Below are positions 1 through 12,122 of a DNA stretch of 64,000 bases, piece after piece. Both the position numbers and the translations under genes were made by a program. Every line of letters starts with the position of its first letter. Position 1 is the stretch's first letter. The DNA lies in the sequence record PV159336; one strand, written 5' to 3'. The notes under the pieces are model-generated. The model did not search any database. It was not told where the DNA came from and worked only from the letters and a program-made list of their open reading frames with translations. This stretch comes from Escherichia phage W22.

Positions 1-1
1 G

Positions 2-112
2 ATCACAGGCTGGGGTTTTGGTGATAAGAAAGAACTTCGTGGTGCTTGGTATTGGTCTGCTCCGCTACAATATTACATTAATGGTAGGTGGATAACAGTA
101 ACCAACGTTTAG
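2..112 (+). CDS. partial CDS (3' end; 5' part lies outside window), product unknown
   Basis: Frame open from window edge to TAG at 110-112 (...RWITVTNV*); RBS of next gene follows directly. Confidence 0.35.
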   Translation: MTGWGFGDKKELRGAWYWSAPLQYYINGRWITVTNV

Positions 113-124
113 TAAGGAGAACAC

Positions 125-676
125 ATGAAAAAAGATGTTATTTACACTGGCTTTGAACTATATCAACCAGAATTGACAGAAGAAAATGTCATGTATCTTT
201 CAATAGGTGCTGGTTTTCTTAAAGATAAAGATGGTAATGATTGGTACGAAATTCAGAAATATTTATCCAAAAATTACCCTGATGCCTATTTCTTAACTCT
301 AGATCACAACAATGTAGTTGTTGCAGTTACGAAAGATGTTTCTACATATTTTCCTGCTGGTCTTACTGTTCTTGTAACGTATAATGTTCCAGATAAAATA
401 GAAGAAGAAAGCAATCTAGGATCGTGGAAATATGATAATGGTAAGTTTATTTCTTATAATGGGTTTGCAATAGAAGATGCCAACCTTAAAATGGAAAAAG
501 AATTAACTTGGGCCACAAATCAAATATCTGCAATGCAAGATTTAGAGGAATTACAAGGTTTATCTGAAGAACAAAAAGATTGGTTAGGAAAAGTTAAACT
601 ATATCGTGCAACACTGATTCAAATTAACGTTGAAGATGCACCTAATATAACTTGGCCTACAAGACCTAAGAAATAG
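125..676 (+). CDS. hypothetical protein (183 aa), probably virion/tail-associated
   Basis: ATG preceded by TAAGGAGA at 113-120; no recognisable motif; sits in fibre gene block. Confidence 0.5.
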   Translation: MKKDVIYTGFELYQPELTEENVMYLSIGAGFLKDKDGNDWYEIQKYLSKNYPDAYFLTLDHNNVVVAVTKDVSTYFPAGLTVLVTYNVPDKIEEESNLGSWKYDNGKFISYNGFAIEDANLKMEKELTWATNQISAMQDLEELQGLSEEQKDWLGKVKLYRATLIQINVEDAPNITWPTRPKK

Positions 677-685
677 GGGTAATGT

Positions 686-1027
686 ATGGAGCTAACAGAA
701 GTATGGGATATCGCTAAAGAGGCGATTATCCCTCTTATTGGTGTAATCTGGGTGGTCTTCAAACAGAAGATAGATGATATGGCAAGTGATTTGGATAAAA
801 TGGAAGACAAATACCGTGAACTAGAAAAGAAGTTGGTGTTTGTTGAATCCACTTATGCTACCAAAGCAGAACTTGCTCAAATGCTTAACCAGATCAACTC
901 TACATTAATGGCAAATAATACTGCCTTAGAACAGAAGATTGAAAAAATAATGGATTTAAAAAATGCTCCTGTTCAATTAATGCTAGAGGAGATTACGAAG
1001 CGCACACAAAGTAAGGACAAAAATTAA
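686..1027 (+). CDS. hypothetical protein with N-terminal hydrophobic segment and coiled-coil
   Basis: AGGGG RBS; hydrophobic AIIPLIGVIWVVF then heptad-like charged region; stop overlaps next start (TAATG). Confidence 0.5.
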   Translation: MELTEVWDIAKEAIIPLIGVIWVVFKQKIDDMASDLDKMEDKYRELEKKLVFVESTYATKAELAQMLNQINSTLMANNTALEQKIEKIMDLKNAPVQLMLEEITKRTQSKDKN

Positions 1028-3441
1028 TGGCGAATTTTCCAACATATCCTGCTACGACACTAGAACAAGGTGTTGATCTGGTTATATTCTCGTCTAACCA
1101 GATGCATGATGTTATTAACGGGGATGCTACAGCAACTGTAGAAACCGAAACAGGTTTAATACCTACACTGCGTAAAGCACTTGTTGATAACTTCTTCTTT
1201 AAGAGTCCTGTTGCTTGGTCAGCAGGATCAACTGAAACTGTATTTAACCAGTTACGTTATTTTGAAAACGGTATCTTGAGTGGGTACTACTATGCCCCAT
1301 CTGCCACTACTGCGAACCCTGTACCTATGCAGGGTACACCTGTAGGAGACAGTAACTGGACTCTGTACGCTCTTAAAACTGAACAGTTAGCTTCAGATGT
1401 GTATCCTTGGTATTTTAAAGGTGCTACAGGATATGAAACAGAAATCAGTCCTCCTTATATCTTTGATAATGCTATTGTCACCATTAACGGTGTAATTCAG
1501 ATTCAAGGTGAAGCATTTACTATCAAAGATAGTAAAATTATTCTGGCAGAACCATTAGGTTTAGATCCGTCTACTGGGCTACCTAACAAATTGTTTGCTT
1601 TTATTGGTAAAACAACAGCCTCTACTTCTTACGTAGAGAAAAACCTTTTGTCATCTACCACTGGTGCAGCAATGGTTGGTCTTCCATCTGGAGGCAACCT
1701 GTTACAAGCTCAATACTTTGTAACGCCTGAACAGTTTGGTGCAATTGGTGATGGAGTTACCGATGATACTCAAGCAATTTTAAAAACCATTACTTTCGCT
1801 AACACGAATAACATTCAAGTACGTGCAGATAAGAATTATAGATTCACAAGCTCAATTGCTATGTCTGGTATTCGTTGGTATGGTGGTACATTCACTGGTA
1901 ACGGTGGAACAATGATTTCTACTGTGTCCTGTTGGATTGAAAACGTTCGCTTTGAAAAATGTTATGTTAAGATGTTAGGTGGGGATTGCCGATTCTATCG
2001 TAATATCTTCTCCAACGCAACATCTACAGCAGCATTCTTAATGCAAGCGATGACAAGTGAAGGTACGTTGGACTTCAGTTACAACGAAATGTATGGTTGT
2101 AAATATGCGATCCTGCAACAAGGTACTGGAGAAGTAATGACCTATGGGCGTTACTCTAACAACTACATTCACGATATCAAAGGTGATGCTATTGAACTTA
2201 ACGTAGTTCAAAAACACTACACTGAAGGTTTGATCATCGAGAATAACCACATTGCTAACGTAGATGCTTCTGGACAAGGGGCAAACTGGGGTATTGGTAT
2301 TGGTGTAGCAGGTAGTGGCCCATATGGTGTTGATGCTCCTGATTCACAATATGTACGTAACTTCAGTATCGTTGGGAATAGGGTTTACAATTGCCGTCAA
2401 TGTTTACACGTTGAAATGGGTAAAAACTTTACGATACGTGATAATGAAGTTTATCCTAACACAGCAGTTTCAACAGGTACAGGTTTAACTACTTGTGGTG
2501 TTGCATTATACGGATGCCAAGACTTTGAAGTTGATGGTTTAACTGGTTATCTGCTTAATGATCCGTCTGTTTCAACACGCATGGTCTTTATTGACTGGGG
2601 TGTTAACAGTGGAAGATATGCGGGGCCACCAATTAACTTTACAATTAAGAATTTGGATATTCCAGAATCTTCAATTGAAATTGCAACGGCTGGATCAGAT
2701 GCCTGGGAAAACTCTACAATTGTTAGTAACATCAATTGTAATGTTTTTAAATGGCGTGGACTACCATCTAGCTCTACCTTTAATAATATTCGTTGCCGTA
2801 GTATTGACTTTATTGGTCAACACGGAAGCGGAGAAGGAAGTGGTGGCGGTTTCTATACTCGCAGCCAATTCACTTATATGAAGTGGGTAGGATGTACAGC
2901 ACTTAGCGGAGATGAAACAACAGTTTCTTTTGCTAAAATCTACACGGATCGTTGCGATCAGGTTGGAAATAACTTTGGTGTTCCAACTGCTGTTGATGGT
3001 ACAGGTCATCGTGGGCCAGTCTTAACCACTATTTCTGAACAATATTTTACAGATTATGATGAATTCCCAGGTGGGCGTGACTTCCCTACTGGAACAGTTA
3101 TTCATTGTGCAAGCGGTAAAAAACACGTTGTTACAGTAGGTGGTGCTTTCTTTAGTAATAATGAGAAAATAAAAGCAACTGTTACAGGTCAAACCTATCT
3201 ACAGTCTAATGCTTTAAACTGGGCTAGTAATGGCTACGCTAAAGCGGCAGGTACTAAGATTGTTATTCCAGGTGCAGGAGCAAATGGTGGCGATCTTGTG
3301 ACAACTATAGCACGTGCTACGTATGTGACAAATAGTTTGTACACAATAGATATTGCAGATCCAATTGTAACACCTACAGCAGAGAATACACAAATTAAAG
3401 CTCTGAACCCTGTTACTTTTGTTACTGTCAATAATGCTTAA
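1027..3441 (+). CDS. tail fibre/tailspike protein with predicted right-handed beta-helix (depolymerase-like) domain
   Basis: 804 aa; repetitive Gly/Asn/Thr-rich beta-helix-like repeats (NNHIANVD, GNRVYNC, NFTIRDNEVY); fibre gene context; family assignment from pattern, not search. Confidence 0.55.
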   Translation: MANFPTYPATTLEQGVDLVIFSSNQMHDVINGDATATVETETGLIPTLRKALVDNFFFKSPVAWSAGSTETVFNQLRYFENGILSGYYYAPSATTANPVPMQGTPVGDSNWTLYALKTEQLASDVYPWYFKGATGYETEISPPYIFDNAIVTINGVIQIQGEAFTIKDSKIILAEPLGLDPSTGLPNKLFAFIGKTTASTSYVEKNLLSSTTGAAMVGLPSGGNLLQAQYFVTPEQFGAIGDGVTDDTQAILKTITFANTNNIQVRADKNYRFTSSIAMSGIRWYGGTFTGNGGTMISTVSCWIENVRFEKCYVKMLGGDCRFYRNIFSNATSTAAFLMQAMTSEGTLDFSYNEMYGCKYAILQQGTGEVMTYGRYSNNYIHDIKGDAIELNVVQKHYTEGLIIENNHIANVDASGQGANWGIGIGVAGSGPYGVDAPDSQYVRNFSIVGNRVYNCRQCLHVEMGKNFTIRDNEVYPNTAVSTGTGLTTCGVALYGCQDFEVDGLTGYLLNDPSVSTRMVFIDWGVNSGRYAGPPINFTIKNLDIPESSIEIATAGSDAWENSTIVSNINCNVFKWRGLPSSSTFNNIRCRSIDFIGQHGSGEGSGGGFYTRSQFTYMKWVGCTALSGDETTVSFAKIYTDRCDQVGNNFGVPTAVDGTGHRGPVLTTISEQYFTDYDEFPGGRDFPTGTVIHCASGKKHVVTVGGAFFSNNEKIKATVTGQTYLQSNALNWASNGYAKAAGTKIVIPGAGANGGDLVTTIARATYVTNSLYTIDIADPIVTPTAENTQIKALNPVTFVTVNNA

Positions 3442-3444
3442 TTA

Positions 3445-3468
3445 AAAGGGGCGAAAGCCCCTTTATAA
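3445..3468 (+). terminator. rho-independent terminator
   Basis: AAAGGGGC-GAAA-GCCCCTTT hairpin followed by TAT-rich tract, directly after stop at 3441. Confidence 0.6.
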
Positions 3469-3481
3469 AAGGAGTAGTAAA

Positions 3482-5443
3482 GTGATTTTAACACGTCCAA
3501 ATAGTGCCATTGCAGACATGGTAGAGTCTCGCTATAGAAAGCGTAGAAGTTTTGCAAGTGGTTTTACCTTAAGAGATGCTCGTGAAGCATTGCTCTTTGA
3601 AGCTGACGGTAACTACTATCAGTGGAAAGGCTCTCTACCTAAAGTTGTACCTGCTAACTCTACTCCTACATCTACTGGAGGGATTTCAGATACAGCTTGG
3701 AAAAATGTGGGTAATGCAGATGACATTGCTCAAATAGAATCAGAATTAGATGCTATTGAAGCTGAAATTGAAGATCTTAGAGAATCCATCCCAGAAGCTG
3801 GTAAATCAGCTTACCAGATTGCCGTAGACAATGGTTTCCAAGGTACTGAGACACAGTGGTTGGCTTCTTTAAAAGGTGATCCAGGTGCTCCATTAAAGCT
3901 ATTAGGGACACTATCTAATACCAACCAATTACCTACAAGTGGAAACAATGCAGGGGATGCATGGATTGTAGGCGAGAATATGTATGCTTGGGATGGTACT
4001 GCTTGGAGAAAAGTAAACTCACAGGGGCCAGAAGGTAAATCTGCTTATGAAGTATGGCTTGCAGCAGGAAATGAAGGTACAGAACTAGATTATCTTGCTT
4101 CAATTAAAGGTGATAAAGGGGAGCCTGGCCCAGAGGGGCCACAAGGTGTGCCAGGTAATAATGCTAATGGTTTTGATTACCAAGGCGCAGCTAATTCCGT
4201 TTCAGATCTTCCTTCTGCATCTCATGGAAACACATCTCAAGCATGGAGTGTTGGTACATATCTATACGTGTCAAACGGTGTAGAATGGATCAATATGGGT
4301 GCTATAGTGGGGCCAAAAGGAGATAAAGGCGACAAAGGTGATAAGGGTAACACTGGTGATTCAGCTTATCAAGTCTGGTTAAATGCTGGTAACGTTGGTA
4401 CTATTGATGAATATATTGCCTCTCTGAAAGGAGAAAAAGGTGATAAGGGAGACAAGGGTGATCAAGGTGCACAGGGTATACAAGGCTTGACGGGGCCAAC
4501 TGGTGCAGGGTTGACCATTATTGACATTCTTACTAGCACTTCTGAACTACCACAAACTGGAGAAGAGGGTGATGGTTATCTAATCAATAATGAACTTTGG
4601 GTCTGGTTGCAAGGAGCCACAGAGTGGACAAATGTTGGTCGTTTAGCTGGTACTCCAATCACTGCAAAAGGACACGTTGCGTCTGCAAGTGCACTTCCTC
4701 CTACAGCTAATTACGGTGATGCTTATCTGACGGAAGATACAGGTCATCTTTACATTTACACCTATGATGAACAAACTCAAACTGCTGAATATGTAGATAT
4801 GGGTAGTTTGAAAGGTGATAAGGGTGAAAAAGGTGACGCTGGTACTAACGGTACAGACGGTGCAACTTGGATTGTTAAAACAACAGATCCAATCTCTAGT
4901 GATGGTAAACAAGGTGATTATGCCTTTAATATCTCCACTGGCGAGGTGTTCTTAAAAACATCTGCAACTGTCTGGACTTCTCAAGGTACACTACCTAGTA
5001 TCACAGATGCACCTAGTGATGGTAAGACTTATGCTCGTAAAGATGGGGCATGGGAAGAACTCACTAATTCTGTAGATGGTCAAGATATAGTTCCAACAAA
5101 AGTAACAACTAATTTTATAGAGGTTACAGCATATACCAACAATTCTGTTACAGGCGACTGGACACCTCCAGGAACACATAACATGAATGTGTTGAATCTT
5201 ACTGGTAACTCTACTATAAAAGCATGGCCTGGTGTCGAAGATAGCACAAAACCTAAACCATTCTCTGCAATAGTTTATCTTATCCAAGATGCCACTGGAG
5301 GTCATACTGTTACTTTAGATCCATCTTACAAAGTAATTGGTTCTAGTGATATTAATACAGATCCTAACGGAGTAACAATACTACAACTAACATATTGTGG
5401 TGTTGGCGATTACGTGGATGCTATTGTTGCTAAACGCACATAA
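3482..5443 (+). CDS. collagen-like repeat tail fibre protein
   Basis: GTG start with AAGGAG RBS; multiple G-X-Y runs (KGDKGEPGPEGPQGVPG, GPKGDKGDKGDKGNTGD, KGEKGDKGDKGDQGAQGIQGLTGPTGAG). Confidence 0.7.
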   Translation: MILTRPNSAIADMVESRYRKRRSFASGFTLRDAREALLFEADGNYYQWKGSLPKVVPANSTPTSTGGISDTAWKNVGNADDIAQIESELDAIEAEIEDLRESIPEAGKSAYQIAVDNGFQGTETQWLASLKGDPGAPLKLLGTLSNTNQLPTSGNNAGDAWIVGENMYAWDGTAWRKVNSQGPEGKSAYEVWLAAGNEGTELDYLASIKGDKGEPGPEGPQGVPGNNANGFDYQGAANSVSDLPSASHGNTSQAWSVGTYLYVSNGVEWINMGAIVGPKGDKGDKGDKGNTGDSAYQVWLNAGNVGTIDEYIASLKGEKGDKGDKGDQGAQGIQGLTGPTGAGLTIIDILTSTSELPQTGEEGDGYLINNELWVWLQGATEWTNVGRLAGTPITAKGHVASASALPPTANYGDAYLTEDTGHLYIYTYDEQTQTAEYVDMGSLKGDKGEKGDAGTNGTDGATWIVKTTDPISSDGKQGDYAFNISTGEVFLKTSATVWTSQGTLPSITDAPSDGKTYARKDGAWEELTNSVDGQDIVPTKVTTNFIEVTAYTNNSVTGDWTPPGTHNMNVLNLTGNSTIKAWPGVEDSTKPKPFSAIVYLIQDATGGHTVTLDPSYKVIGSSDINTDPNGVTILQLTYCGVGDYVDAIVAKRT

Positions 5444-5445
5444 TC

Positions 5446-5471
5446 AAAGCCCCTTCGGGGGCTTATTATTT
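5446..5471 (+). terminator. rho-independent terminator
   Basis: AAGCCCC-TTCG-GGGGCTT hairpin then ATTATTT, 3 nt after stop. Confidence 0.65.
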
Positions 5472-5482
5472 AAGGAGATTAA

Positions 5483-8302
5483 ATGTATCCTATTCCTTTA
5501 TTTATGTCAACAACATCAGCTTCAGTAGTAACAGCTACATCTATAACCACTTCCTCTATTGGTATTGCAATAGTTGGTAGTAAAAAGCAACTGACATACA
5601 CAGTTTCACCGGAAGATGGTGCGTTATTTGATATAGCTTTTTCATCTTCAGATAATACCAAAATGGTTATAGATAATAACGGTATGATGGAGTTTGTTGC
5701 TGAAGGCGGTTTTGATGCAATAATGACAGCTAAAAATAATTTAGGTGCTGTCTTAACTGATCAGTCTGGTGGCTATGCTTCAGAATTAAGTGTGTACACT
5801 GAAAGTCTGTCTGCTATGGATGCAGGAACTACTCAACAATTGGTTGCTACAATCAGTCCAGAAGGTGCTAAAGACCTTCCAGACATGGTAATTACGTACA
5901 CCACAACAGATCCAGAAGTAGCTACTGTAAGCCCTACAGGATTAATAACTGCTCTTAAAGATGGCAGTTGCCGTATAGGTTGCACTGCAACTTATCAAGG
6001 AACAGTGGTGGCCTCTGATAGTTCTTATTTAGGTGTTAATGCTGTTCCTGTTATTTCTAATGTAACAGCCGTGGCAAACAGCTATGGAGACATTCGTGTT
6101 GCTTGGGATGTAGCTGATCCGCTAGATGGTGATACTTATACTGTAGAAGTATTAGATTTAAGTAATAACAGTGTCCAGTGGACTACAACAACCACGAATA
6201 CTTACGCCTACTTTGATATCTCTGACTCTATTCCTCTTTATGGGTTTGCTCCAACATACCTTAAAATTAGCGTTAAGAGCACCAAAGCAGCAGCCGTTAT
6301 CTTTAATAACTCAATAGCTACAGATGATTCATTCATTAAAGAAGTTATTGTCTTTGCTGGACAAGATAACGTAAATGCACACTTTACAGAACTATCTGGT
6401 GCAAATAAAGCAGCAATGAGTAGCACAACAGCCCGTAATGCATATGCTACGCAACGTGGTTTAGCAAATGCTGAAGTTCTCCCGTTAAATACAGCTTCTG
6501 GATCATCAGCAGCAGATAAATATGCAGATGATAAAGCCGGAACAGGTACACCAGACAACTACTGGTATGATCTGGATAACACAGCAGATGGGCCATGCTT
6601 AACTAACTTTATCACTAAAGTCACACCTTATGCAAGTAAGGTTAAAGCAATTATTTGGGGACAAGGTGAAAATGATGCTGTATCAGCATCTTCGACTGTT
6701 GCAGGAAGATACAGTAACACTACACGTTACCATGATGCTACGATAGCTATCTTTGATAAGATGCGTACAATAGTTCCTGCTTCTCAAGCAAAAATTGTTT
6801 GGCAGATCCTAGGACGTTCTTATCTGTATGGTGTAGAAGTTAATGGTGTGGATTGGCAGAAATACAGAAATGTACAAAGAACCATCTCTACAGCACGTGA
6901 CGATGTTATCATTGGTTCTTGGGTAGATGGTGCTGAACGTTACAGTGGTTATGTTTATGAAGAAGGTATTGATGGTCGTATCCATTATATTTCTTCTGTA
7001 TACCAGACAGCAGCTACAAAACTTGCTAAATCAGCAGCAGACGGTACAGACCTAACATCAACGTCACCTGTTTGGGTTGATATGGCTGTTCCAACTGGAG
7101 CAACAGCTACTTCCCAACCTAATCAAGATACAATCTTAGCATGGGATGCTCAAGGTTATAGTAAACACTACTTCCGTAATATTAACGTCTTAACAGCATC
7201 TGTATTAACTGAACAAACGCTTAATACGAACAGTTATACGTTTACCTATGCAGATCAAGTAGAACAATATGGTTTTGCAGCAGGTACTACGATATTTGAT
7301 GTTGCATATTATGACGAAGCAAATGATGTGTTATCTCCTTTAGTACGTTTTAATGTTAGCGTTACAGCAGGAAAAGTAGAAGATAAACCTGTCGTGATGG
7401 ACTATGATTTGACGCAAGAAACTCTCCCATCAGATGTTAAGGTTAATGGTGGAAACTCTTTTGCTCGTGCTTCTGGAGATACACTTGTAGCCACTAACAC
7501 CTTGGTTGCTCCGTTGGAGTATGTTGGCACTACCCCTGTAGGTAGACGTGTAACAGCTAACACAGCTACACAAATTTTTGTCAACAACGCCTTAACAAGC
7601 GCAAGCCCGTGGGTAAAGACCAACTTAACTGTTGCAGCTTCATCTGATAAATCTCCGGCTGGAACTACTGCTAATGTATTCAAATTAACTCCGACTACAA
7701 CCTCTGGTAGTCATATCTTAACTGCAACATATACTAACGCGTACAACATATCTGCCGGACGTAACTGGTCTGCCTCTGTTTTCTTGAAAGCGAACGGGAT
7801 TACTAAGGCCAAACTAAGATTAAAAGCAGGGACTGAAGTTAATGAAGGTACTTTTGATTTAGCAGCAGGTACATTCACAGGAAGTGAAGCTAATATTATA
7901 TCTATGGGCAACGGTTGGTATCGTGCTATTCTGCATAAAACAGGGATAGCCAAACAGTCCTCCATAAGTTTTGAAATAATTGCCTTGGATGCTACTGGTG
8001 CGGAGATTTTCGCTGGGGATGGTACTAGTAACCTTGCAGTTTGGTTGCCACAGCTTGAAGGTGCTTCTACAGGAGAAACATCAAAAGCTGGATCGCCTTA
8101 TGTCTGCACATATCCTGGAAATTTAGGAGGAGTATCCTTCACTATACCAAGGAACGGACATACTGGTGTGGATGTTTACTATTCCAACGGAGACGTTGTT
8201 CGTGACGTATTCTCTGGTACGGCATCTACTTGGACAATAAACTACTCCAGCTTGTACGATTGGGGATCAGTCTTTATTACAGGTTTGAAATATTACGACT
8301 AA
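5483..8302 (+). CDS. tail fibre protein with Ig-like (BIG2-type) repeats and SGNH/sialate-O-acetylesterase-like domain
   Basis: 939 aa; N-terminal Ig-like repeats; internal IIWGQGENDA resembles the W-x-QGESN esterase motif; AAGGAG RBS. Confidence 0.5.
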   Translation: MYPIPLFMSTTSASVVTATSITTSSIGIAIVGSKKQLTYTVSPEDGALFDIAFSSSDNTKMVIDNNGMMEFVAEGGFDAIMTAKNNLGAVLTDQSGGYASELSVYTESLSAMDAGTTQQLVATISPEGAKDLPDMVITYTTTDPEVATVSPTGLITALKDGSCRIGCTATYQGTVVASDSSYLGVNAVPVISNVTAVANSYGDIRVAWDVADPLDGDTYTVEVLDLSNNSVQWTTTTTNTYAYFDISDSIPLYGFAPTYLKISVKSTKAAAVIFNNSIATDDSFIKEVIVFAGQDNVNAHFTELSGANKAAMSSTTARNAYATQRGLANAEVLPLNTASGSSAADKYADDKAGTGTPDNYWYDLDNTADGPCLTNFITKVTPYASKVKAIIWGQGENDAVSASSTVAGRYSNTTRYHDATIAIFDKMRTIVPASQAKIVWQILGRSYLYGVEVNGVDWQKYRNVQRTISTARDDVIIGSWVDGAERYSGYVYEEGIDGRIHYISSVYQTAATKLAKSAADGTDLTSTSPVWVDMAVPTGATATSQPNQDTILAWDAQGYSKHYFRNINVLTASVLTEQTLNTNSYTFTYADQVEQYGFAAGTTIFDVAYYDEANDVLSPLVRFNVSVTAGKVEDKPVVMDYDLTQETLPSDVKVNGGNSFARASGDTLVATNTLVAPLEYVGTTPVGRRVTANTATQIFVNNALTSASPWVKTNLTVAASSDKSPAGTTANVFKLTPTTTSGSHILTATYTNAYNISAGRNWSASVFLKANGITKAKLRLKAGTEVNEGTFDLAAGTFTGSEANIISMGNGWYRAILHKTGIAKQSSISFEIIALDATGAEIFAGDGTSNLAVWLPQLEGASTGETSKAGSPYVCTYPGNLGGVSFTIPRNGHTGVDVYYSNGDVVRDVFSGTASTWTINYSSLYDWGSVFITGLKYYD

Positions 8303-8303
8303 T

Positions 8304-8335
8304 AAAAAAGGAGCCATTAGGCTCCTTTTCTTTTA
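8304..8335. terminator. bidirectional rho-independent terminator between convergent genes
   Basis: AAGGAGCC-ATTA-GGCTCCTT hairpin flanked by A-run upstream and T-run downstream; lies between + gene stop 8302 and - gene stop 8338. Confidence 0.65.
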
Positions 8336-8337
8336 TC

Positions 8338-8769
8338 TTAATCAGTGAAAATTACGCTCACATCTTCTTTAGAGAAGAGTTTATGATCTTCGCCTTTTGT
8401 CTCAAGAGTTTCATACAGGTTAAGAAGTTCTGAAACATCTTTCTCTACCAGTTTCTTCAATGTTGCAATTTTCTGTTTGCGACTCTTAATACGTTCAGCT
8501 ACAACCTTACGTTGGTATCCAGCAGTACGATAACCTGAGAAAGTTACACCAGTAAGACTTGCAGTTACAGGATCGTAGTGACGTTCAATCTGAAATTTAT
8601 TAAAAGGTACAGCGTCATCACGAATAATCTTACCGCCATTACTTACTTGACGAAGACCAGTAACTTGTTCCAGTCGTGCCATAGAAATCTTTGGAGACAG
8701 ACCAGAGTCCAAATTCATACCGTTGTTAATCAGTGCTTTCAGGGTGATTTTGCTGTTCATTGTACTCAT
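8338..8769 (-). CDS. hypothetical protein
   Basis: ORF of 143 aa; 5' end overlaps stop of upstream MTase gene so true start may be an internal Met. Confidence 0.4.
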   Translation of the reverse strand: MSTMNSKITLKALINNGMNLDSGLSPKISMARLEQVTGLRQVSNGGKIIRDDAVPFNKFQIERHYDPVTASLTGVTFSGYRTAGYQRKVVAERIKSRKQKIATLKKLVEKDVSELLNLYETLETKGEDHKLFSKEDVSVIFTD

Positions 8770-9457
8770 TTAGTCGTTCCTCCGCTTGCTTAAAAATATT
8801 TACATCGGCTTCACAGCCTAAGTATTCTCTACCTGTTAAAAGTGCCGCAACTTGTGTTGTTGCACTTCCAGAGAAGAAGTCTAAGACTACATCTCCTTCG
8901 TTGGTATGTATATTAATAAGGTCACAAAACAAAGTCAAGTGTTTTTGTGTTGGATGAAAACGATCTGCTCCTTGATAGATAGGATACTCAAACACACCCT
9001 TATGGTAGGAAGCATTGAAGGTTGGCTTCGAACCTTTAACACAAACAATAGCCATCTCTTTAGCGTTACTAAGGTAGTTAACACCACTGTTGATGGGTAC
9101 AGGGTTTGTTTTAATCCATTCAATAGTACGGAACATACGAAAACCAAGCGGTTCAAGGATTTCACGTAGCTCCTGGATCTTCCAGATATCATACCAAACT
9201 ATGCAAGTACCACCTTTTCTAAGCACCCTATAGGCTTCTTTGAATACTTCTTTAAAGTAAGGAATATCTACAACGTCCCAGTCACCAAAGTTGTAAGATA
9301 CACGGAATCTATCCGTATCTTTTCCAGTAGGCTCTCCAGATTGAAAATTTGTGTCACGAGAAATAGCATATGGTGGGTCAGTAAGAATCAAATCTACACT
9401 ATTGCTTTCGAGGGTTTGCAGGTAGTTTAATGCAGTGTTGTTTACAAATTCGCTCAT
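8726..9457 (-). CDS. DNA methyltransferase (N6-adenine/N4-cytosine class, motif IV before motif I)
   Basis: ILTDPPY catalytic motif near N-terminus and VLDFFSGSATT AdoMet-binding motif near C-terminus; GGAGAT RBS. Confidence 0.8.
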   Translation of the reverse strand: MSEFVNNTALNYLQTLESNSVDLILTDPPYAISRDTNFQSGEPTGKDTDRFRVSYNFGDWDVVDIPYFKEVFKEAYRVLRKGGTCIVWYDIWKIQELREILEPLGFRMFRTIEWIKTNPVPINSGVNYLSNAKEMAIVCVKGSKPTFNASYHKGVFEYPIYQGADRFHPTQKHLTLFCDLINIHTNEGDVVLDFFSGSATTQVAALLTGREYLGCEADVNIFKQAEERLNEYNEQQNHPESTD

Positions 9458-9517: not shown

Positions 9518-10465
9518 TTAGAAACAGTGCAGGAAGTTTCGACCATATTGCAAACCAATAGGAGCAAACGGGATATCATCATCGAAATCTTGAACAACAG
9601 GTTCTGGTTCTTTCGGTGCTGGCTCTTTCTTCTCTACTTTTTTAGTTTCTTTCTTAACATCTTGTACTGGAGTAGACATTCCACGGATAGCAGCAGCTAC
9701 TTTATCAGACAAAGCAAGAACTTCACGAGCAGCTTCAATAATCTCTTCTGCCGTTACAGTTTTACCTGTATGATCACGACAAGCGTTAAGAATTGCGTGT
9801 CCAACTGAAGCACCAAGATCATAGTCAGTCACATCAACACCACGATCTTTAGCAATTTCAGCTTTCAGAGTAACAGTTGCAGATTGTACCACACCAGCCA
9901 AATCGAAAGCATCACCTTTCACACCAGCACGTAGAAGCTCCAGAGCGCCGTTTACAGCGTGTCCTGTTTCAATCCCTACGGTATCACGTTTTTTGTAGTT
10001 AGGCTTGTTACCGTCATTATTAGATGGCTTATTTCCACCTTTTGAAGAGGATTGCGCTTGCTGAACACCTTCTGTTGAAAGAATAGTGATTTTACCTTTA
10101 GAGGAGTTGTAGTATGTTTTACCATTCCATTCGGAAGGTTTAACATCCATAGTTAGTTCTACGCCTTTTTCGATAGTAACCCACTTATCACCATCTTTAA
10201 CTTGCAGGTTTTCATGTTCTGGGTGCAGTTTAACTTCACCTAGGCTAACCCAAACACCTTTATCATCAGCACCAGCACCTTTCTCTTTAATAAGCAGAGA
10301 TGCTTTGTGAGTTGATTCAATTTTCTTATCTGGCTGACCTGCAACCTTAATATAAGAGACTTTCATTTCATCAAACTTATCTAGCTTGACATATTCGACA
10401 ATACCTTCAGCCCAGAATGCTTCTTTTTTAGTACGACGGTCGATTTCAGAATTAATTACTGGCAT
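9518..10465 (-). CDS. putative single-stranded DNA-binding protein
   Basis: AGAGGAG RBS; acidic DFDDDIPF motif typical of SSB C-terminal tails, here followed by 15 extra residues; low-complexity Gly/Ser/Asn linker. Confidence 0.45.
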   Translation of the reverse strand: MPVINSEIDRRTKKEAFWAEGIVEYVKLDKFDEMKVSYIKVAGQPDKKIESTHKASLLIKEKGAGADDKGVWVSLGEVKLHPEHENLQVKDGDKWVTIEKGVELTMDVKPSEWNGKTYYNSSKGKITILSTEGVQQAQSSSKGGNKPSNNDGNKPNYKKRDTVGIETGHAVNGALELLRAGVKGDAFDLAGVVQSATVTLKAEIAKDRGVDVTDYDLGASVGHAILNACRDHTGKTVTAEEIIEAAREVLALSDKVAAAIRGMSTPVQDVKKETKKVEKKEPAPKEPEPVVQDFDDDIPFAPIGLQYGRNFLHCF

Positions 10466-10481
10466 AAATTCTCCTCTATAA

Positions 10482-10880
10482 TTACATTACTTTAACACAA
10501 AACTCTCGTAAAAGAGTAGCGTCAGTTTCTTCCAACAGGTATTTACCAAGACCAATACCAAATCCTATTTCACCACTTTCAAAATGGAGAATTTGTATCT
10601 TTTCTCCACCAAGGTTAATTACTTTTGCTTTTCCAGGATTGTCCAAAACATCTCGTATTGTGTCCTGTAGTAGCATTAGTTCACGTTTTGTGATAGTGGT
10701 TTCAGATATCTCTTTGTCTTCTACCCGCACTGTTAAACGGTTGTATCCACCAAAGAGACATAGTATTTGAATAAAAAAGGTATTATCTTGAGGTTCAACA
10801 TCTTTTTTAGTTAGTTCAAGACGATTAGTTTCTCTACTGTAGAACGTCTCGACTAAGATTTTAGAACGATTGTCTGTCAT
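10482..10880 (-). CDS. hypothetical protein
   Basis: 132 aa ORF with GAGGA RBS. Confidence 0.45.
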   Translation of the reverse strand: MTDNRSKILVETFYSRETNRLELTKKDVEPQDNTFFIQILCLFGGYNRLTVRVEDKEISETTITKRELMLLQDTIRDVLDNPGKAKVINLGGEKIQILHFESGEIGFGIGLGKYLLEETDATLLREFCVKVM

Positions 10881-10923
10881 TCAAGTCCTCATAATAACAC
10901 ATAATTGTAAGGTTTGTCAACAC

Positions 10924-11517
10924 TTAAATCTTAAATTCTTCGTTGTTAAATGAATCCAGTGTACGTACTTCTGGTTCTTTGGGAATGAAAACGTCTTTTA
11001 CAAAGCGGAACATAGGGAAACGTTCTGCCATTTTACGGACGTGTGCTTCTTTACCTGTGTATCGGTGATTAATAGTGCAAATATTAGTTTTCAATGCAAA
11101 TTCAAAATCTGGATGATATACATAATTTTGACCATCCCAGTAACACAGGCAAATAGCTACGTCAAAGTTCCATACGATTTCACTGCGTACACCTTCTTCC
11201 ATGATCATAAAGTTAAACTTAAGGTCTTTATAGTATGCTTCAAATACCCATTTCAAATGTGGTAGTTCGGCATAAGTGTGTTCTGTTTGCTTAGTAAGTT
11301 GTTTAACATTACGTGCACCAACACCCAACATCAAAAATTTCTCTACTAGCACGAGTGTATTGTGGTTAGGCATACGCAAGTAAATGTCAATGTTTTGTGC
11401 AGGTTTCTCTAATCGCCAATCACGTACAGCGCCGCCAGCTACAATTGCAAACGGATCTACCAGTTGGCACATACGTAATACTTCTAAAGCGCGTACTTTT
11501 TGATCTTCAATATTCAT
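10924..11517 (-). CDS. nucleotidyltransferase, CCA-adding/poly(A) polymerase head-domain-like
   Basis: Start refined to ATG 11517 (AGGAGA RBS); IVAGGAVRDW motif plus NIDIY acidic pair resemble GGxVRD and DxD of class II CCA enzymes. Confidence 0.5.
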   Translation of the reverse strand: MNIEDQKVRALEVLRMCQLVDPFAIVAGGAVRDWRLEKPAQNIDIYLRMPNHNTLVLVEKFLMLGVGARNVKQLTKQTEHTYAELPHLKWVFEAYYKDLKFNFMIMEEGVRSEIVWNFDVAICLCYWDGQNYVYHPDFEFALKTNICTINHRYTGKEAHVRKMAERFPMFRFVKDVFIPKEPEVRTLDSFNNEEFKI

Positions 11518-11525
11518 ATTTTCTC

Positions 11526-12122
11526 CTATCGTGTCCACTCTTTATGTTGTTCTACATGCTCAAGCATTTCATTATACAGTGCTTTAAGATGTGGAACAAC
11601 TCTTTCATCTTCAGTTTCAAAGAATTTTGTAAGCTGTTCTGCTTTAGCTTTCAACCAGCAAAGATGCGCTTCAATTTCAGTATTAAAACGCCCCAGCGTT
11701 TTCATGCGACCGTCTACTTTTATATTGGCTTTGTATTTATTACGATCTTTTTCGTAACTACAGCCTACCATAGTTCCATGAGATCTTTTACTTACTCTAT
11801 AAGCTAAGAACTTATTAAGATCTCCTGTTACTAAAAGACAGGTATCGGGAGAGTAAACCCTCCCTCCTATAATATCTTTATCAAGTTCTAAGTTTTCCCA
11901 GTTTTCCCAAGTTTGCAACCAGGAGTAGAAATTTGAGAACAGTTTCCATTCTTCACAAACCGTCACCCCCTTATAACAAGGATCACGTTCTTGTTGGCAA
12001 GGGGAGTAACACCTCCCCAACATAGCCATCCATTTCATATAATGCGGCGTTAGTTTCTTACTACCAGGTAGTGTACTCTCGCCTTCCAAATCATTAATAC
12101 CTTCACCATATACGGTAAGCAT
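11526..12122 (-). CDS. putative AP2-like DNA-binding / homing-endonuclease-like protein
   Basis: C-terminal KYKANIKVDGRMKTLGRFNTEIEAHLCW resembles AP2 domain pattern; free-standing between replication genes; weak call. Confidence 0.3.
   Translation of the reverse strand: MLTVYGEGINDLEGESTLPGSKKLTPHYMKWMAMLGRCYSPCQQERDPCYKGVTVCEEWKLFSNFYSWLQTWENWENLELDKDIIGGRVYSPDTCLLVTGDLNKFLAYRVSKRSHGTMVGCSYEKDRNKYKANIKVDGRMKTLGRFNTEIEAHLCWLKAKAEQLTKFFETEDERVVPHLKALYNEMLEHVEQHKEWTR

Follow-up and report, generated by a model that had tools for sequence, protein, structure and literature searches.

Myophages of the phi92 group (Justusliebigvirus) infect Escherichia coli with a published "Swiss-army-knife" adsorption apparatus by which several surface glycans are recognised. 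Colanic acid is hydrolysed by phi92 gp150, according to Xu 2025 as cited in PMC13450770, and gp151 is a putative fibre whose predicted structure resembles the head spike gp52 of Pa223 (PMC13450770). The N4 protein gp65 (PDB 9LC0, 9YF4, and 9YF5) is at once a non-contractile tail sheath and the receptor-binding protein for NfrA, possibly also for NGR, and in the sheath of phiAxp-3 a fragment spanning residues 795 to 1195, which lacks block I of the second SGNH copy, is sufficient for LPS binding. The head spike fibre of RcGTA is described as having been studied as a receptor-binding protein with an extracellular polysaccharide receptor (PMC10218006). SGNH esterases need a Ser acyl-enzyme in their mechanism; the SASA family is defined by an inverted oxyanion hole, made up of the block I Gln and the block III (H)QGE, and the Asp of its DxxH motif is dispensable, as in NanS (PMC9487903).

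We analysed a 64,000-nucleotide stretch of DNA from Escherichia phage W22 (PV159336; the window), in which three large genes (genes 1 to 3, encoding proteins 1 to 3) follow one another. All three have been described before, as the tailspike and fibre genes of a phi92-like phage of E. coli; nothing in the module is new. With a probability of roughly 0.6, these genes form the distal end of the known cluster for multivalent adsorption to the host, and protein 3 is an accessory, modular, lectin-like adhesin.

Gene content and the products of genes 1 and 2

Window DNA is 97 to 99% identical to that of published Justusliebigvirus phages (including SD2, PHB05, and KMB37), and over 50 genomes in GenBank carry the adsorption module nearly unchanged. 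The three consecutive open reading frames, all on the plus strand, encode 804, 653, and 939 amino acids (aa) (Table 1), exactly as given in the preliminary description; the three-component module that it drew from them is in fact the 3′ end of a longer run of tail-fibre genes beginning before the window. Its suggestion that more than one surface polysaccharide is recognised agrees with the published apparatus of phi92-like phages. Ahead of gene 1 lie a chaperone gene, which belongs with a short tail fibre gene upstream of the window, and a gp149 homologue whose stop codon overlaps the tailspike start (TAATG, read from the sequence).

Table 1. Positions of genes, domains, active-site residues, and hairpins in the window
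Feature	Position (nt)	Position (aa)	Strand	Basis
Tail-fibre assembly chaperone, phi92 gp148 homologue	125-676		+	Caudo_TAP E = 1e-10; phrog_136 E = 6e-44; 97.3% identity to gp148
113-aa protein, phi92 gp149 homologue	686-1027		+	99.1% identity to gp149; phrog_15210
Gene 1, colanidase tailspike, phi92 gp150 orthologue	1027-3441		+	99.0% identity to gp150 over 804 aa
Protein 1, N-terminal anchor		~1-180	+	
Protein 1, WcaM-like beta-helix	2098-2682	358-552	+	TIGR04004 WcaM E = 9e-29
Protein 1, C-terminal TSP Ig-like domain	3136-3402	704-792	+	PF20745 E = 2.5e-14
Hairpin after gene 1 (8-bp GC-rich stem, GAAA loop)	3445-3464		+	dG -14.4 kcal/mol, z -3.46
Gene 2, collagen-like fibre, phi92 gp151 orthologue	3482-5443		+	98.6% identity to gp151
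Protein 2, Tail_spike_N adaptor	3512-3712	11-77	+	PF18668 E = 4e-21, 75 bits (cutoff 25)
Protein 2, G-X-Y tracts	4109-4867	210-227, 277-294, 317-343, 445-462	+	
Protein 2, foldon-like motif	4985-5068	502-529	+	Fibritin_C E = 1.2e-3, below cutoff
Protein 2, distal domain		530-653	+	
Hairpin after gene 2 (7-bp stem, UUCG loop, then AUUAUUU)	5447-5464		+	dG -13.1, z -2.16
Gene 3, modular 939-aa protein 3	5483-8302		+	
Protein 3, MYPIPLF peptide and two Big_2 Ig-like domains	5483-6052	1-190	+	PF02368 E = 7e-14, two stretches
Protein 3, beta-rich linker domains		191-280, 536-628	+	Possibly FN3-like, by sequence pattern
Protein 3, SASA-type SGNH-fold domain	6323-7087	281-535	+	AF2, Foldseek, profile matches
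Asp295 codon (GAT), block I nucleophile-Ser position (GQSN to GQDN)	6365-6367	295	+	Alignments
IIWGQGENDA, SASA block III (H)QGE signature, oxyanion-hole network	6650-6679	390-399	+	
His501 codon, retained block V catalytic-base position	6983-6985	501	+	Alignments
Protein 3, variable C-terminal all-beta domain	7367-8299	629-939	+	AF2 pLDDT 85.6
Protein 3, GTA head-spike-fibre domain (NF048003)	7562-8071	694-863	+	70.1 bits (cutoff 36)
Terminator hairpin after gene 3	8306-8329		.	dG -15.4, z -3.8

Residues 180 to 804 of protein 1 are about 99% identical to the crystal structure PDB 6E0V (phi92 gp150; E = 0), and the protein matches phrog_6117, "colanic acid degradation" (E = 2e-270). The beta-helix proposed earlier is borne out by the 6E0V match and by the WcaM and parallel-beta-helix profiles, which indicate a beta-helix glycanase. 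The gene 1 product is the colanidase tailspike, a trimeric glycanase that cuts colanic acid and so allows the virion to reach the cell surface, as demonstrated with the 99%-identical gp150.

Gene 2 starts with GTG, preceded by AGGAG. The G-X-Y tracts of its product comprise 6, 6, 9, and 6 triplets (81 of 653 residues; the shuffled-sequence mean is 0.47 triplets), and Pfam Collagen matches with E = 4.7e-8 (33 bits against a cutoff of 27.2); these are genuine tracts, yet short ones with interruptions, and calling them long was an overstatement. Fibritin_C scores 19.3 bits, just under its cutoff of 21, and the motif ITDAPSDGKTYARKDGAWEEL is one that we take to resemble the T4 foldon. Collagen tracts and a foldon-like motif together suggest a trimer. 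The N-terminus matches CBA120 tailspikes and 4QNL, and from this domain homology protein 2, a putative fibre of coiled-coil, short collagen-like tracts, and repeated beta motifs, may dock through its Tail_spike_N adaptor in the manner of branched tailspikes.

A stable, GC-rich hairpin does follow each of the three stop codons, as had been noted, but of the terminators claimed only that at 8306 to 8329 has a canonical U-tract. A terminator scan made no call at 3445 to 3464, where the hairpin lacks a U-tract and is followed by AUAAAA; at most it would act as a weak terminator or stabilise the RNA. The hairpin after gene 2, with its weak U-tract, is a weak intrinsic terminator. The third, a strong terminator hairpin, lies between the convergent gene 3 (+) and an open reading frame at 8338 to 8769 (-), and its A-run and T-run flanks suggest that it is probably bidirectional.

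Domain organisation and active-site residues of protein 3

Gene 3 is the last gene of the tail-fibre operon in all relatives. Its product (named "tail carbohydrate esterase," "lateral tail fiber protein," or "tail protein" in other records) runs from an N-terminal peptide through two Big_2 domains, which confirm the Ig-like repeats reported before, a beta linker, the SGNH/SASA-type domain, and a second beta linker to a CBM-like "GTA head-spike-fibre" domain. The motif M[YF]P[IF]P is kept in Ig/SGNH, Ig/CBM, and RCC1-type homologues whose sequence begins at the native N-terminus, and P0055, P0057, and P0197 are without it; the peptide and Ig domains are a scaffold common to proteins with other distal modules. 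The model of the C-terminal domain was matched by Foldseek to Pa193 and E217 baseplate/fibre chains, to CBM22/27/4, and to lectins, which points to a CBM/lectin-like beta-sandwich fold; with identity falling to 62% among variants, it is the most divergent part of the protein. The word "fibre," as applied to protein 3 in the preliminary description, is unproven, its closest solved relative, N4 gp65, being non-trimeric and multi-domain.

The AF2 model of residues 260 to 560 (pLDDT 92, pTM 0.87) has the three-layer alpha/beta/alpha SGNH fold, and Foldseek on the domain returned N4 gp65 (TM 0.77), then 1ZMB (E = 7e-7), CE2, PatB, and many GDSL esterases. Structure prediction, suggested at the outset as a check for an esterase fold, thus found one of the SGNH/SASA kind. 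Pfam SASA (PF03629) scores 14.2 bits on the whole protein and 16.6 bits on the domain, both below the gathering threshold of 24.8; among 28 aligned relatives it matches 19 at E values up to 0.01 (best, 2.6e-13).

The nucleophile Ser expected in block I, where beta1 ends (GQSN), is absent from protein 3 and from 31 of 31 close variants, all of which read Asp. In the model, Asp295 sits at the elbow between beta1 (287 to 293) and a helix (295 to 301). Diverse homologues carry Ser at this position in 47 cases out of 61, Asp in 5, and another residue in 9, and both Asp295 and His501 are invariant in the 31 close variants. Gln294 and W392-G-Q-G-E396 are present and align with the family consensus, 2APJ, and 1ZMB, so that the inverted oxyanion hole of SASA proteins is kept. 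IIWGQGENDA, likened earlier to a SASA/SGNH catalytic motif, is indeed the block III (H)QGE, but the nucleophile motif is block I. The Gly-containing block II segment GSSAADK is conserved; in block V, His occurs in 47 of 55 homologues, and protein 3 has its Asp497 at -4, not -3. A sister clade (P0032 to P0034) also reads Asp in block I and has lost the Gln (GGDN), the QGE (LGE), and, in two of three members, the His; these further losses fit a non-catalytic role. The SGNH domain is under strong purifying selection, with 18 synonymous and 1 non-synonymous difference (dN/dS, about 0.02; estimates from 0.016 to 0.06).

A profile of the SGNH domain plus linker, run against PDB sequences, found chain I of 9LC0 (N4 gp65) as its best match (E = 9.5e-76), in two copies, of which copy 2 is without Ser and His. 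The same SGNH-like domain, followed by a beta-sandwich linker, occurs in phiAxp-3 ORF69. The domains that define the gp65 family, NCTSP_N (PF23844) and TIM-barrel_NCTSP (PF23845), gave no match in protein 3 at E values up to 0.1; the Ser-bearing homologues P0036, P0037, P0044, and P0117 carry both. Receptor binding by gp65 and LPS binding by the phiAxp-3 fragment provide a non-enzymatic precedent within the family.

The phi92 copy of gene 3 is broken by a 226-nucleotide deletion and a 2-nucleotide insertion, and since phi92 carries this fragmented copy, protein 3 appears dispensable for basic infectivity. ECGD1 has a short form of the protein and, like phi92, is without the C-terminal domain; in other relatives distal modules are exchanged or missing, and Ig-plus-CBM and RCC1 forms exist.

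Proposed role of protein 3

Protein 3 would be an accessory modular adhesin and not a classical enzyme fibre, its N-terminal peptide and two Ig domains forming a common scaffold that carries the SASA-type SGNH domain and the variable CBM-like "head-spike-fibre" domain. Because Asp295 replaces Ser while Gln294, Q394-G-E396, and His501 are kept, the most likely role of the SGNH domain is to bind, and not to cleave, an acetylated glycan of the cell surface, and the lectin-like C-terminal domain may serve as a strain-specific second binding site. On sequence grounds, binding of sugars is thus a likelier function than cutting them, although an Asp beside an intact oxyanion hole and a His could still allow some chemistry.

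Deacetylation of O-antigen or capsule, as proposed in the preliminary description, is doubtful because block I reads GQDN, not GQSN. That the domain is nevertheless a working carbohydrate O-acetylesterase on O-antigen, capsule, or colanic acid, using Asp295/His501 or another residue, we consider unlikely. Its predicted fold is a true SGNH fold, Gln294, QGE, His501, and GSSAADK are all in place, and an active enzyme, too, would be expected to keep all the other residues of the SASA active site under strong purifying selection; the same label, "tail carbohydrate esterase," is given in the GenBank records of KMB37 and ALITA. Esterase tailspikes are known from phages, G7C gp63.1 among them, which counts in favour of an enzyme. 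Others are described for Moo19/B2 and Possum (PMC11654681, PMC9569702). Against this stand the loss, in all 31 variants, of a Ser that 47 of 61 homologues keep, in a mechanism that needs a Ser acyl-enzyme (PMC9487903). The sister clade with the same Asp has shed further catalytic residues, and the Pfam SASA score, at 14 to 17 bits, is under the gathering threshold of 24.8. No SGNH enzyme that uses Asp as its nucleophile is known to us, and a literature search for one found none; this also weighs against activity.

It is less likely still that protein 3 takes no part in receptor binding during infection and is a Hoc-like decoration or adherence protein, whose Ig and lectin domains would stick to glycans of mucus or biofilms, or a dispensable structural accessory at another site on the virion. 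Big_2 domains are typical of decoration proteins and of the C-termini of major tail proteins, protein 3 matches phrog_215 ("structural protein with Ig domain") and phrog_28902 ("major tail protein"), phi92 gp152 is annotated with a lambda gpV-like fold, and the family of the C-terminal domain takes its name from the head spike fibre of a GTA; yet the best fold matches of that domain are Pa193 and E217 baseplate/tail-fibre chains, and the SGNH cassette is common to a proven receptor-binding protein, N4 gp65. Phi92 itself, with gene 3 broken, still has a very broad host range, and the phi92 cryo-EM paper leaves the gene 3 product out of the fibre candidates and does not place it; phi92 is without an intact copy. 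Conversely, gene 3 ends the tail-fibre operon in all relatives, and allelic swapping and divergence of the distal domain are typical of host-specificity modules. The least probable reading makes the SGNH-plus-linker cassette a receptor module common with N4 that helps to recognise the glycan NGR or NfrA, through which it is exported; N4 and the phi92-like phages alike depend on them. Bas60 to Bas62, phi92-like phages with intact 939-aa proteins, need wecB and nfrB like N4, but the published explanation is a different shared protein, a gp66-type deacetylase tailspike encoded upstream of the window. The similarity of the cassette to gp65 (profile E = 9.5e-76; TM 0.77), with which N4 binds its receptor NfrA and possibly also NGR, is to be set against its presence in phages of Achromobacter and Pseudomonas and in numerous metagenomic proteins. 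In addition, Vequintavirinae, likewise NGR dependent, seem to combine this Ig scaffold with other modules (RCC1, CBM only), and the part of gp65 shown to engage the plug is its last 200 residues (D9-D10).

Returning to the adhesin reading, a bolder version of it is a long shot, if slightly less so than the shared NGR/NfrA module: the Asp-bearing SASA domain might sit in a receptor cassette of the phi92 group and N4 gp65 as a naturally evolved "substrate-trapping" lectin whose ligand is an acetylated glycan of the E. coli surface, or else be the first SGNH-fold enzyme with an Asp-His pair. A trapping cassette, if real, would add to the deacetylase tailspike a second link from these unrelated phages to the NGR/NfrA pathway. 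The practical value of the analysis is a correction: several records label gene 3 "tail carbohydrate esterase" or list "glycosidase domains," and the catalytic Ser is missing in every sequenced variant, so that enzyme mining or host-range engineering built on the esterase label will probably fail. Handles for engineering these broad-host-range, therapeutically interesting phages are the homology of protein 3 to the N4 receptor-binding protein gp65, a plug-and-play layout (conserved N-terminal peptide and Ig scaffold with SGNH, CBM, or RCC1 cargo), and the evidence that gene 3 is dispensable in phi92.

Comparison with known systems

Protein 1 shares with phi92 gp150 (6E0V/6E0W) its genomic position, the WcaM-like beta-helix, and the C-terminal TSP Ig-like domain, differing by about 8 substitutions only and with no functional difference detected. 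Protein 2 has the length of phi92 gp151 and the same GTG-start region, with no notable difference, and its adaptor is homologous to the N-terminal adaptor of G7C gp63.1 (PDB 4QNL), a trimeric esterase spike with a catalytic Ser. The esterase tailspikes of N4-like phages (G7C gp63.1, Moo19/B2, Possum) are receptor-binding proteins, trimeric and with a catalytic Ser, whose SGNH domain is directed against acetylated surface polysaccharide; none of them was among the best 50 fold matches of the protein 3 SGNH domain.

SASA/CE6-type sialate O-acetylesterases (PF03629; NanS, At4g34215 [2APJ], and CAC0529 [1ZMB]) have in common with protein 3 the SGNH fold, the block I Gln, block III, and the block V His, whereas the nucleophile is Ser in the enzymes and the position is Asp295 in protein 3, with its sub-threshold Pfam score. 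The C-terminal domain exceeds the family cutoff of the RcGTA head spike fibre domain (NF048003), but in protein 3 it is joined to an Ig/SGNH scaffold that a tail-fibre operon encodes, while that of RcGTA is attached to the capsid vertex. N4 gp65, a multi-domain "beads on a string" receptor-binding protein, shares the SGNH domain and the beta linker that follows it; protein 3 has one SGNH copy, Ig domains, and a CBM-like end and comes from a myovirus tail-fibre operon, whereas gp65 has two SGNH copies and forms the sheath of a podovirus.

Gene layout and the known fibre cluster

Open reading frame calls placed three consecutive large genes on the plus strand exactly where the preliminary description had put them (see table), just ahead of a strand switch at ~8.3 kb. 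Bases 1-9000 were 97-99% identical, over their full length, to many Escherichia coli myophages of the genus Justusliebigvirus (phi92-like, Stephanstirmvirinae), including SD2, EC.P2, PHB05, KMB37, alia, and PaulScherrer. Genes 1-3 are the last three of a longer tail-fibre cluster that starts upstream of the window; in KMB37, a deacetylase fibre, a glycosidase fibre, and the short tail fibre are among the products of that preceding stretch. In the literature, the cluster is portrayed as a "Swiss-army-knife" apparatus for multivalent adsorption. The module is not new: dozens of genomes carry it in annotated form, and two of the three proteins have orthologues in phi92 that have been studied. What this analysis adds is a correction for protein 3, which has an esterase fold and lacks the catalytic serine, with modest new observations (homology to a cassette of N4 gp65, a head-spike-fibre/CBM end, a conserved N-terminal peptide, and a phi92 pseudogene).

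Coordinates of the three genes, the segments of protein 3, and related features in phi92 and N4
Feature	Location	Strand	Product or content	Label in relatives' records or remark
Gene 1	1027-3441	+	804 aa	'colanidase tailspike'
Gene 2	3482-5443	+	653 aa; GTG start 7 nt downstream of AGGAG	'tail fiber protein' / 'lateral tail fiber protein with type I collagen domain'
Gene 3	5483-8302	+	939 aa	'tail protein' / 'tail carbohydrate esterase' / 'lateral tail fiber protein with intimin and glycosidase domains'
Protein 3, N-terminal part	aa 1-190		Short N-terminal peptide and two Big_2 Ig domains	PF02368
Protein 3, first linker	aa 191-280		Beta-rich	
Protein 3, putative esterase domain	aa 281-535			
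Protein 3, second linker	aa 536-628		Beta-rich	
Protein 3, C-terminal domain	aa 629-939			
phi92, broken orthologue of gene 3	FR775895.2 91320-92982 (L002:7001-8663, phi92 locus)			Equivalent to window 5483-7366
N4 gp65, SGNH copy 1	aa 431-602		Ser kept (GESQ)	Truncated before block V
N4 gp65, SGNH copy 2	aa 716-1009		Ser -> Gln, His -> Tyr	

Each gene had been credited with its own terminator. A stable GC-rich hairpin does lie 3' of every stop codon (folding against shuffles; dG, -14.4, -13.1, and -15.4 kcal/mol; z-scores, -3.5, -2.2, and -3.8 for genes 1, 2, and 3), but a canonical U-tract is present only at the last (8306-8329), and the terminator scan made no call at the hairpin after gene 1. 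Since it lies between convergent genes, the hairpin at 8306-8329 is probably bidirectional. Sigma-70-like promoter matches were at chance level (26 found versus 25.9 expected), and no promoter is therefore claimed. Upstream, a 113-aa gp149 homologue (686-1029) matched PHROG families of lipoproteins and, at a weak level, of Rz-like spanins. Its last bases, TAATG, include the start codon of the tailspike, an arrangement suggestive of translational coupling between the two genes. Downstream, on the minus strand (8338-9457), a 143-aa open reading frame without a family match overlaps the end of an N6/N4 DNA methyltransferase gene (PF01555, E=2e-30) by 44 nt, and the next four minus-strand frames (9518-12122) had no Pfam match. 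Across the whole 64-kb window, ARAGORN found zero tRNA genes, and zero Rfam families reached the gathering threshold; the sign of the GC skew flips near 8, 46, 52, and 62 kb, marking blocks of opposite transcription.

Colanidase tailspike and collagen-like fibre

Protein 1 was 99.0% identical to phi92 gp150 across all 804 residues, and its residues 180-804 matched the crystallised fragment 6E0V/6E0W almost throughout, so the "beta-helix spike" initially described is correct and already characterised. It matched PHROG 6117 ("colanic acid degradation"; E=2e-270) and ends in a TSP Ig-like domain. The gp150 protein has been shown to be a hydrolase of colanic acid that acts on its beta-1,4 Glc-Fuc bond (Xu et al. 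2025, cited in PMC13450770). The central, catalytic beta-helix (aa 358-552; window 2098-2682) matched WcaM (TIGR04004, E=9e-29), a colanic-acid biosynthesis protein of the host, a sequence similarity that hints at common ancestry of the phage colanidase and a protein of the host cluster.

Protein 2 is a collagen-like fibre, 98.6% identical to phi92 gp151. Four G-X-Y tracts (6, 6, 9, and 6 triplets; 81 of 653 residues in all) stand well above shuffled sequences (mean, 0.47 triplets), though at this length the tracts hardly deserve the "long" with which they had been introduced; they alternate with three 'SAYxx...LASLKG' and five 'LPxxG...W' repeats. A Tail_spike_N domain (PF18668, 75 bits) occupies residues 11-77; CBA120 tailspikes and 4QNL carry this domain N-terminally as well, and there it has an attachment role inside branched receptor-binding complexes. 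A foldon-like motif (aa 502-529) scored slightly under the Fibritin_C cutoff, and the fibre is probably trimeric. In a 2026 cryo-EM study of phi92, neither gp150 nor gp151 could be fitted into fibre II.

An SGNH domain without its serine in protein 3

The Ig-like repeats ascribed to protein 3 were recovered as two Big_2 domains; an Ig-domain homologue is not mentioned in the rV5 proteomics paper. Neither linker domain had an fn3 match in Pfam, and "FN3-like" is a label only. Within the C-terminal domain, aa 694-863 passed the NCBIfam model NF048003, 'phage head spike fiber domain' (70 bits versus a cutoff of 36). The domain was modelled as an all-beta sandwich (pLDDT 85.6), for which the best fold matches were baseplate/tail-fibre chains from two Pseudomonas phages, Pa193 and E217; next came CBM22, CBM27, CBM4, a hyaluronan-binding module, and lectins.

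For the putative esterase domain, the Pfam SASA match of protein 3 was weak (14-17 bits versus a cutoff of 24.8), and an exhaustive HMMER search of 1.84 billion representatives returned only 81 relatives, 27 of which served as alignment input for AlphaFold2. The resulting model was confident (pLDDT 92, pTM 0.87), Foldseek assigned it to the SGNH fold (hits to 1ZMB, an acetylxylan esterase, at E=7e-7, and to CE2 esterases, PatB, and many GDSL esterases), and Pfam SASA was matched by 19 of 28 aligned members (best E=2.6e-13); on this evidence, the esterase fold expected from the preliminary description is present.

What defines the SASA family is a Gln in block I, adjoining the nucleophile Ser, together with a block III (H)QGE motif that positions it; the block V Asp is dispensable (PMC9487903). 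The segment IIWGQGENDA (aa 390-399), previously likened to a catalytic motif, is the block III signature, and Gln294 and His501 are retained in the alignment, but the nucleophile Ser is replaced: block I is G293-Q294-D295-N296. The model puts Asp295 where strand beta1 (287-293) meets the first helix (295-301), the nucleophile position in SGNH enzymes. Among non-redundant homologues aligned to a single-sequence profile, this position held Ser in 47, Asp in 5, and another residue in 9, with all five Asp cases from this phage group (Justusliebigvirus variants and 645-aa proteins of Avunavirus-like phages).

Asp295 and His501 were invariant in all 31 full-length variants; the recurrence of Asp295 in 31 independent sequences rules out a sequencing error. 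A decaying relic is ruled out by purifying selection, with a dN/dS of ~0.02 (18 synonymous and 1 non-synonymous differences, dN/dS 0.016, against EmilieFrey; 14 and 1 against KMB37). The SGNH segment is the most conserved part of protein 3 (98.4-100% identity; the C-terminal domain falls to 62%).

The alleles of gene 3 are modular. The gene is nearly identical to those of ECGD1 and phi92 up to the end of the SGNH domain and then diverges sharply. Against ECGD1, dS was 0.03 within the SGNH domain and 1.28 within the second linker, a jump that marks a recombination or mosaic junction near aa 538 (window about 7095). Beyond it, the window type has a 310-aa C-terminal domain that ECGD1 and phi92 lack; ECGD1, outra, and A110a carry a 628-aa form ending after the second linker. 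The phi92 gene matches aa 1-628 only and is broken up into gp152 and gp153. An out-of-frame deletion of 226 nt takes out the first linker domain, a 2-nt insertion makes the gp153 GTG start, and the block I (GQDN) segment falls in a third frame, outside every annotated ORF; this broken state suggests that the gene is dispensable in phi92.

Phapecoctaviruses have the Ig pair and C-terminal domain without the SGNH domain, and in other relatives these elements are joined to RCC1 repeats. Nearly all these proteins start with the peptide M[YF]P[IF]P (window 5483-5506, aa 1-8; N-termini of homologues P0032-P0054, P0196, and P0198), kept though the downstream domains differ wholly (Ig+SGNH, Ig+CBM, or RCC1 repeats). 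Judged from sequence, this peptide may serve them all as a shared element by which exchangeable cargo docks on the virion.

Relationship to N4 gp65 and possible roles

A single-sequence PDB search with protein 3 gave an Ig-domain match only; the link to gp65 of phage N4 emerged solely with the family profile (PDB 9LC0 chain I, also 9YF4/9YF5; E=9.5e-76). This 1382-aa 'non-contractile tail sheath' has long been recognised as the receptor-binding protein of N4; it is a chain of ten domains and pairs with gp64. It holds two tandem copies of a SASA-like SGNH domain and was the best fold match of the protein 3 domain (TM 0.77). The paper on the N4 structure gives no description of how the gp65 domains fold, nor do papers on N4-type sheath/receptor-binding proteins, as far as accessible, describe these domains as esterase-like. 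ORF69, the sheath protein of phiAxp-3 (L006:1641-5828, phiAxp-3 locus), also has tandem copies (aa 432-603 and 716-1019). In N4-type sheath proteins, the Ser motif of copy 1 is GESQ or GESN and the copy is truncated before block V; in copy 2, Ser and His are lost in N4 and both kept in phiAxp-3.

We propose that protein 3 would act as an accessory adhesin, with an SGNH domain that binds but does not cleave an acetylated glycan and a variable CBM-like end that provides strain-specific binding. The domain could instead be an unusual active Asp-His esterase, as every other active-site residue is conserved; we consider this unlikely, for in a sister clade with the same Asp (homologues P0032-34) Gln (GGDN), QGE (LGE), and, in two of three, His are also gone, which fits a fold kept for binding or structure and not for catalysis. 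A literature search for Asp-nucleophile or pseudo-enzyme SGNH domains returned a general review only. That protein 3 is a decoration or adherence protein with no part in infection seems less probable still.

A receptor cassette common to N4 and tied to NGR/NfrA is the reading we doubt most strongly. Sellner et al. found wecB and nfrB to be required by Vequintavirinae, phi92-like phages, and N4, and ascribed this to a shared deacetylase tailspike, to which the gp65 homology adds a second shared element; yet Vequintavirinae are NGR dependent too, and in relatives of this group the scaffold bears other cargo, which speaks against a requirement for the cassette.

Binding without catalysis has a counterpart in phiAxp-3, where the LPS-binding fragment of ORF69 (residues 795-1195) starts past block I of copy 2 and spans the linker repeats after it, so that the nucleophile cannot be needed for its binding. 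By Pfam (NCTSP_N and TIM-barrel_NCTSP), the Ser-bearing relatives P0036, P0037, P0044, and P0117 belong to the gp65 family. Protein 3 has the cassette in common with that family but neither of these two domains, and it is thus a protein that shares the cassette and not a member of the gp65 family.
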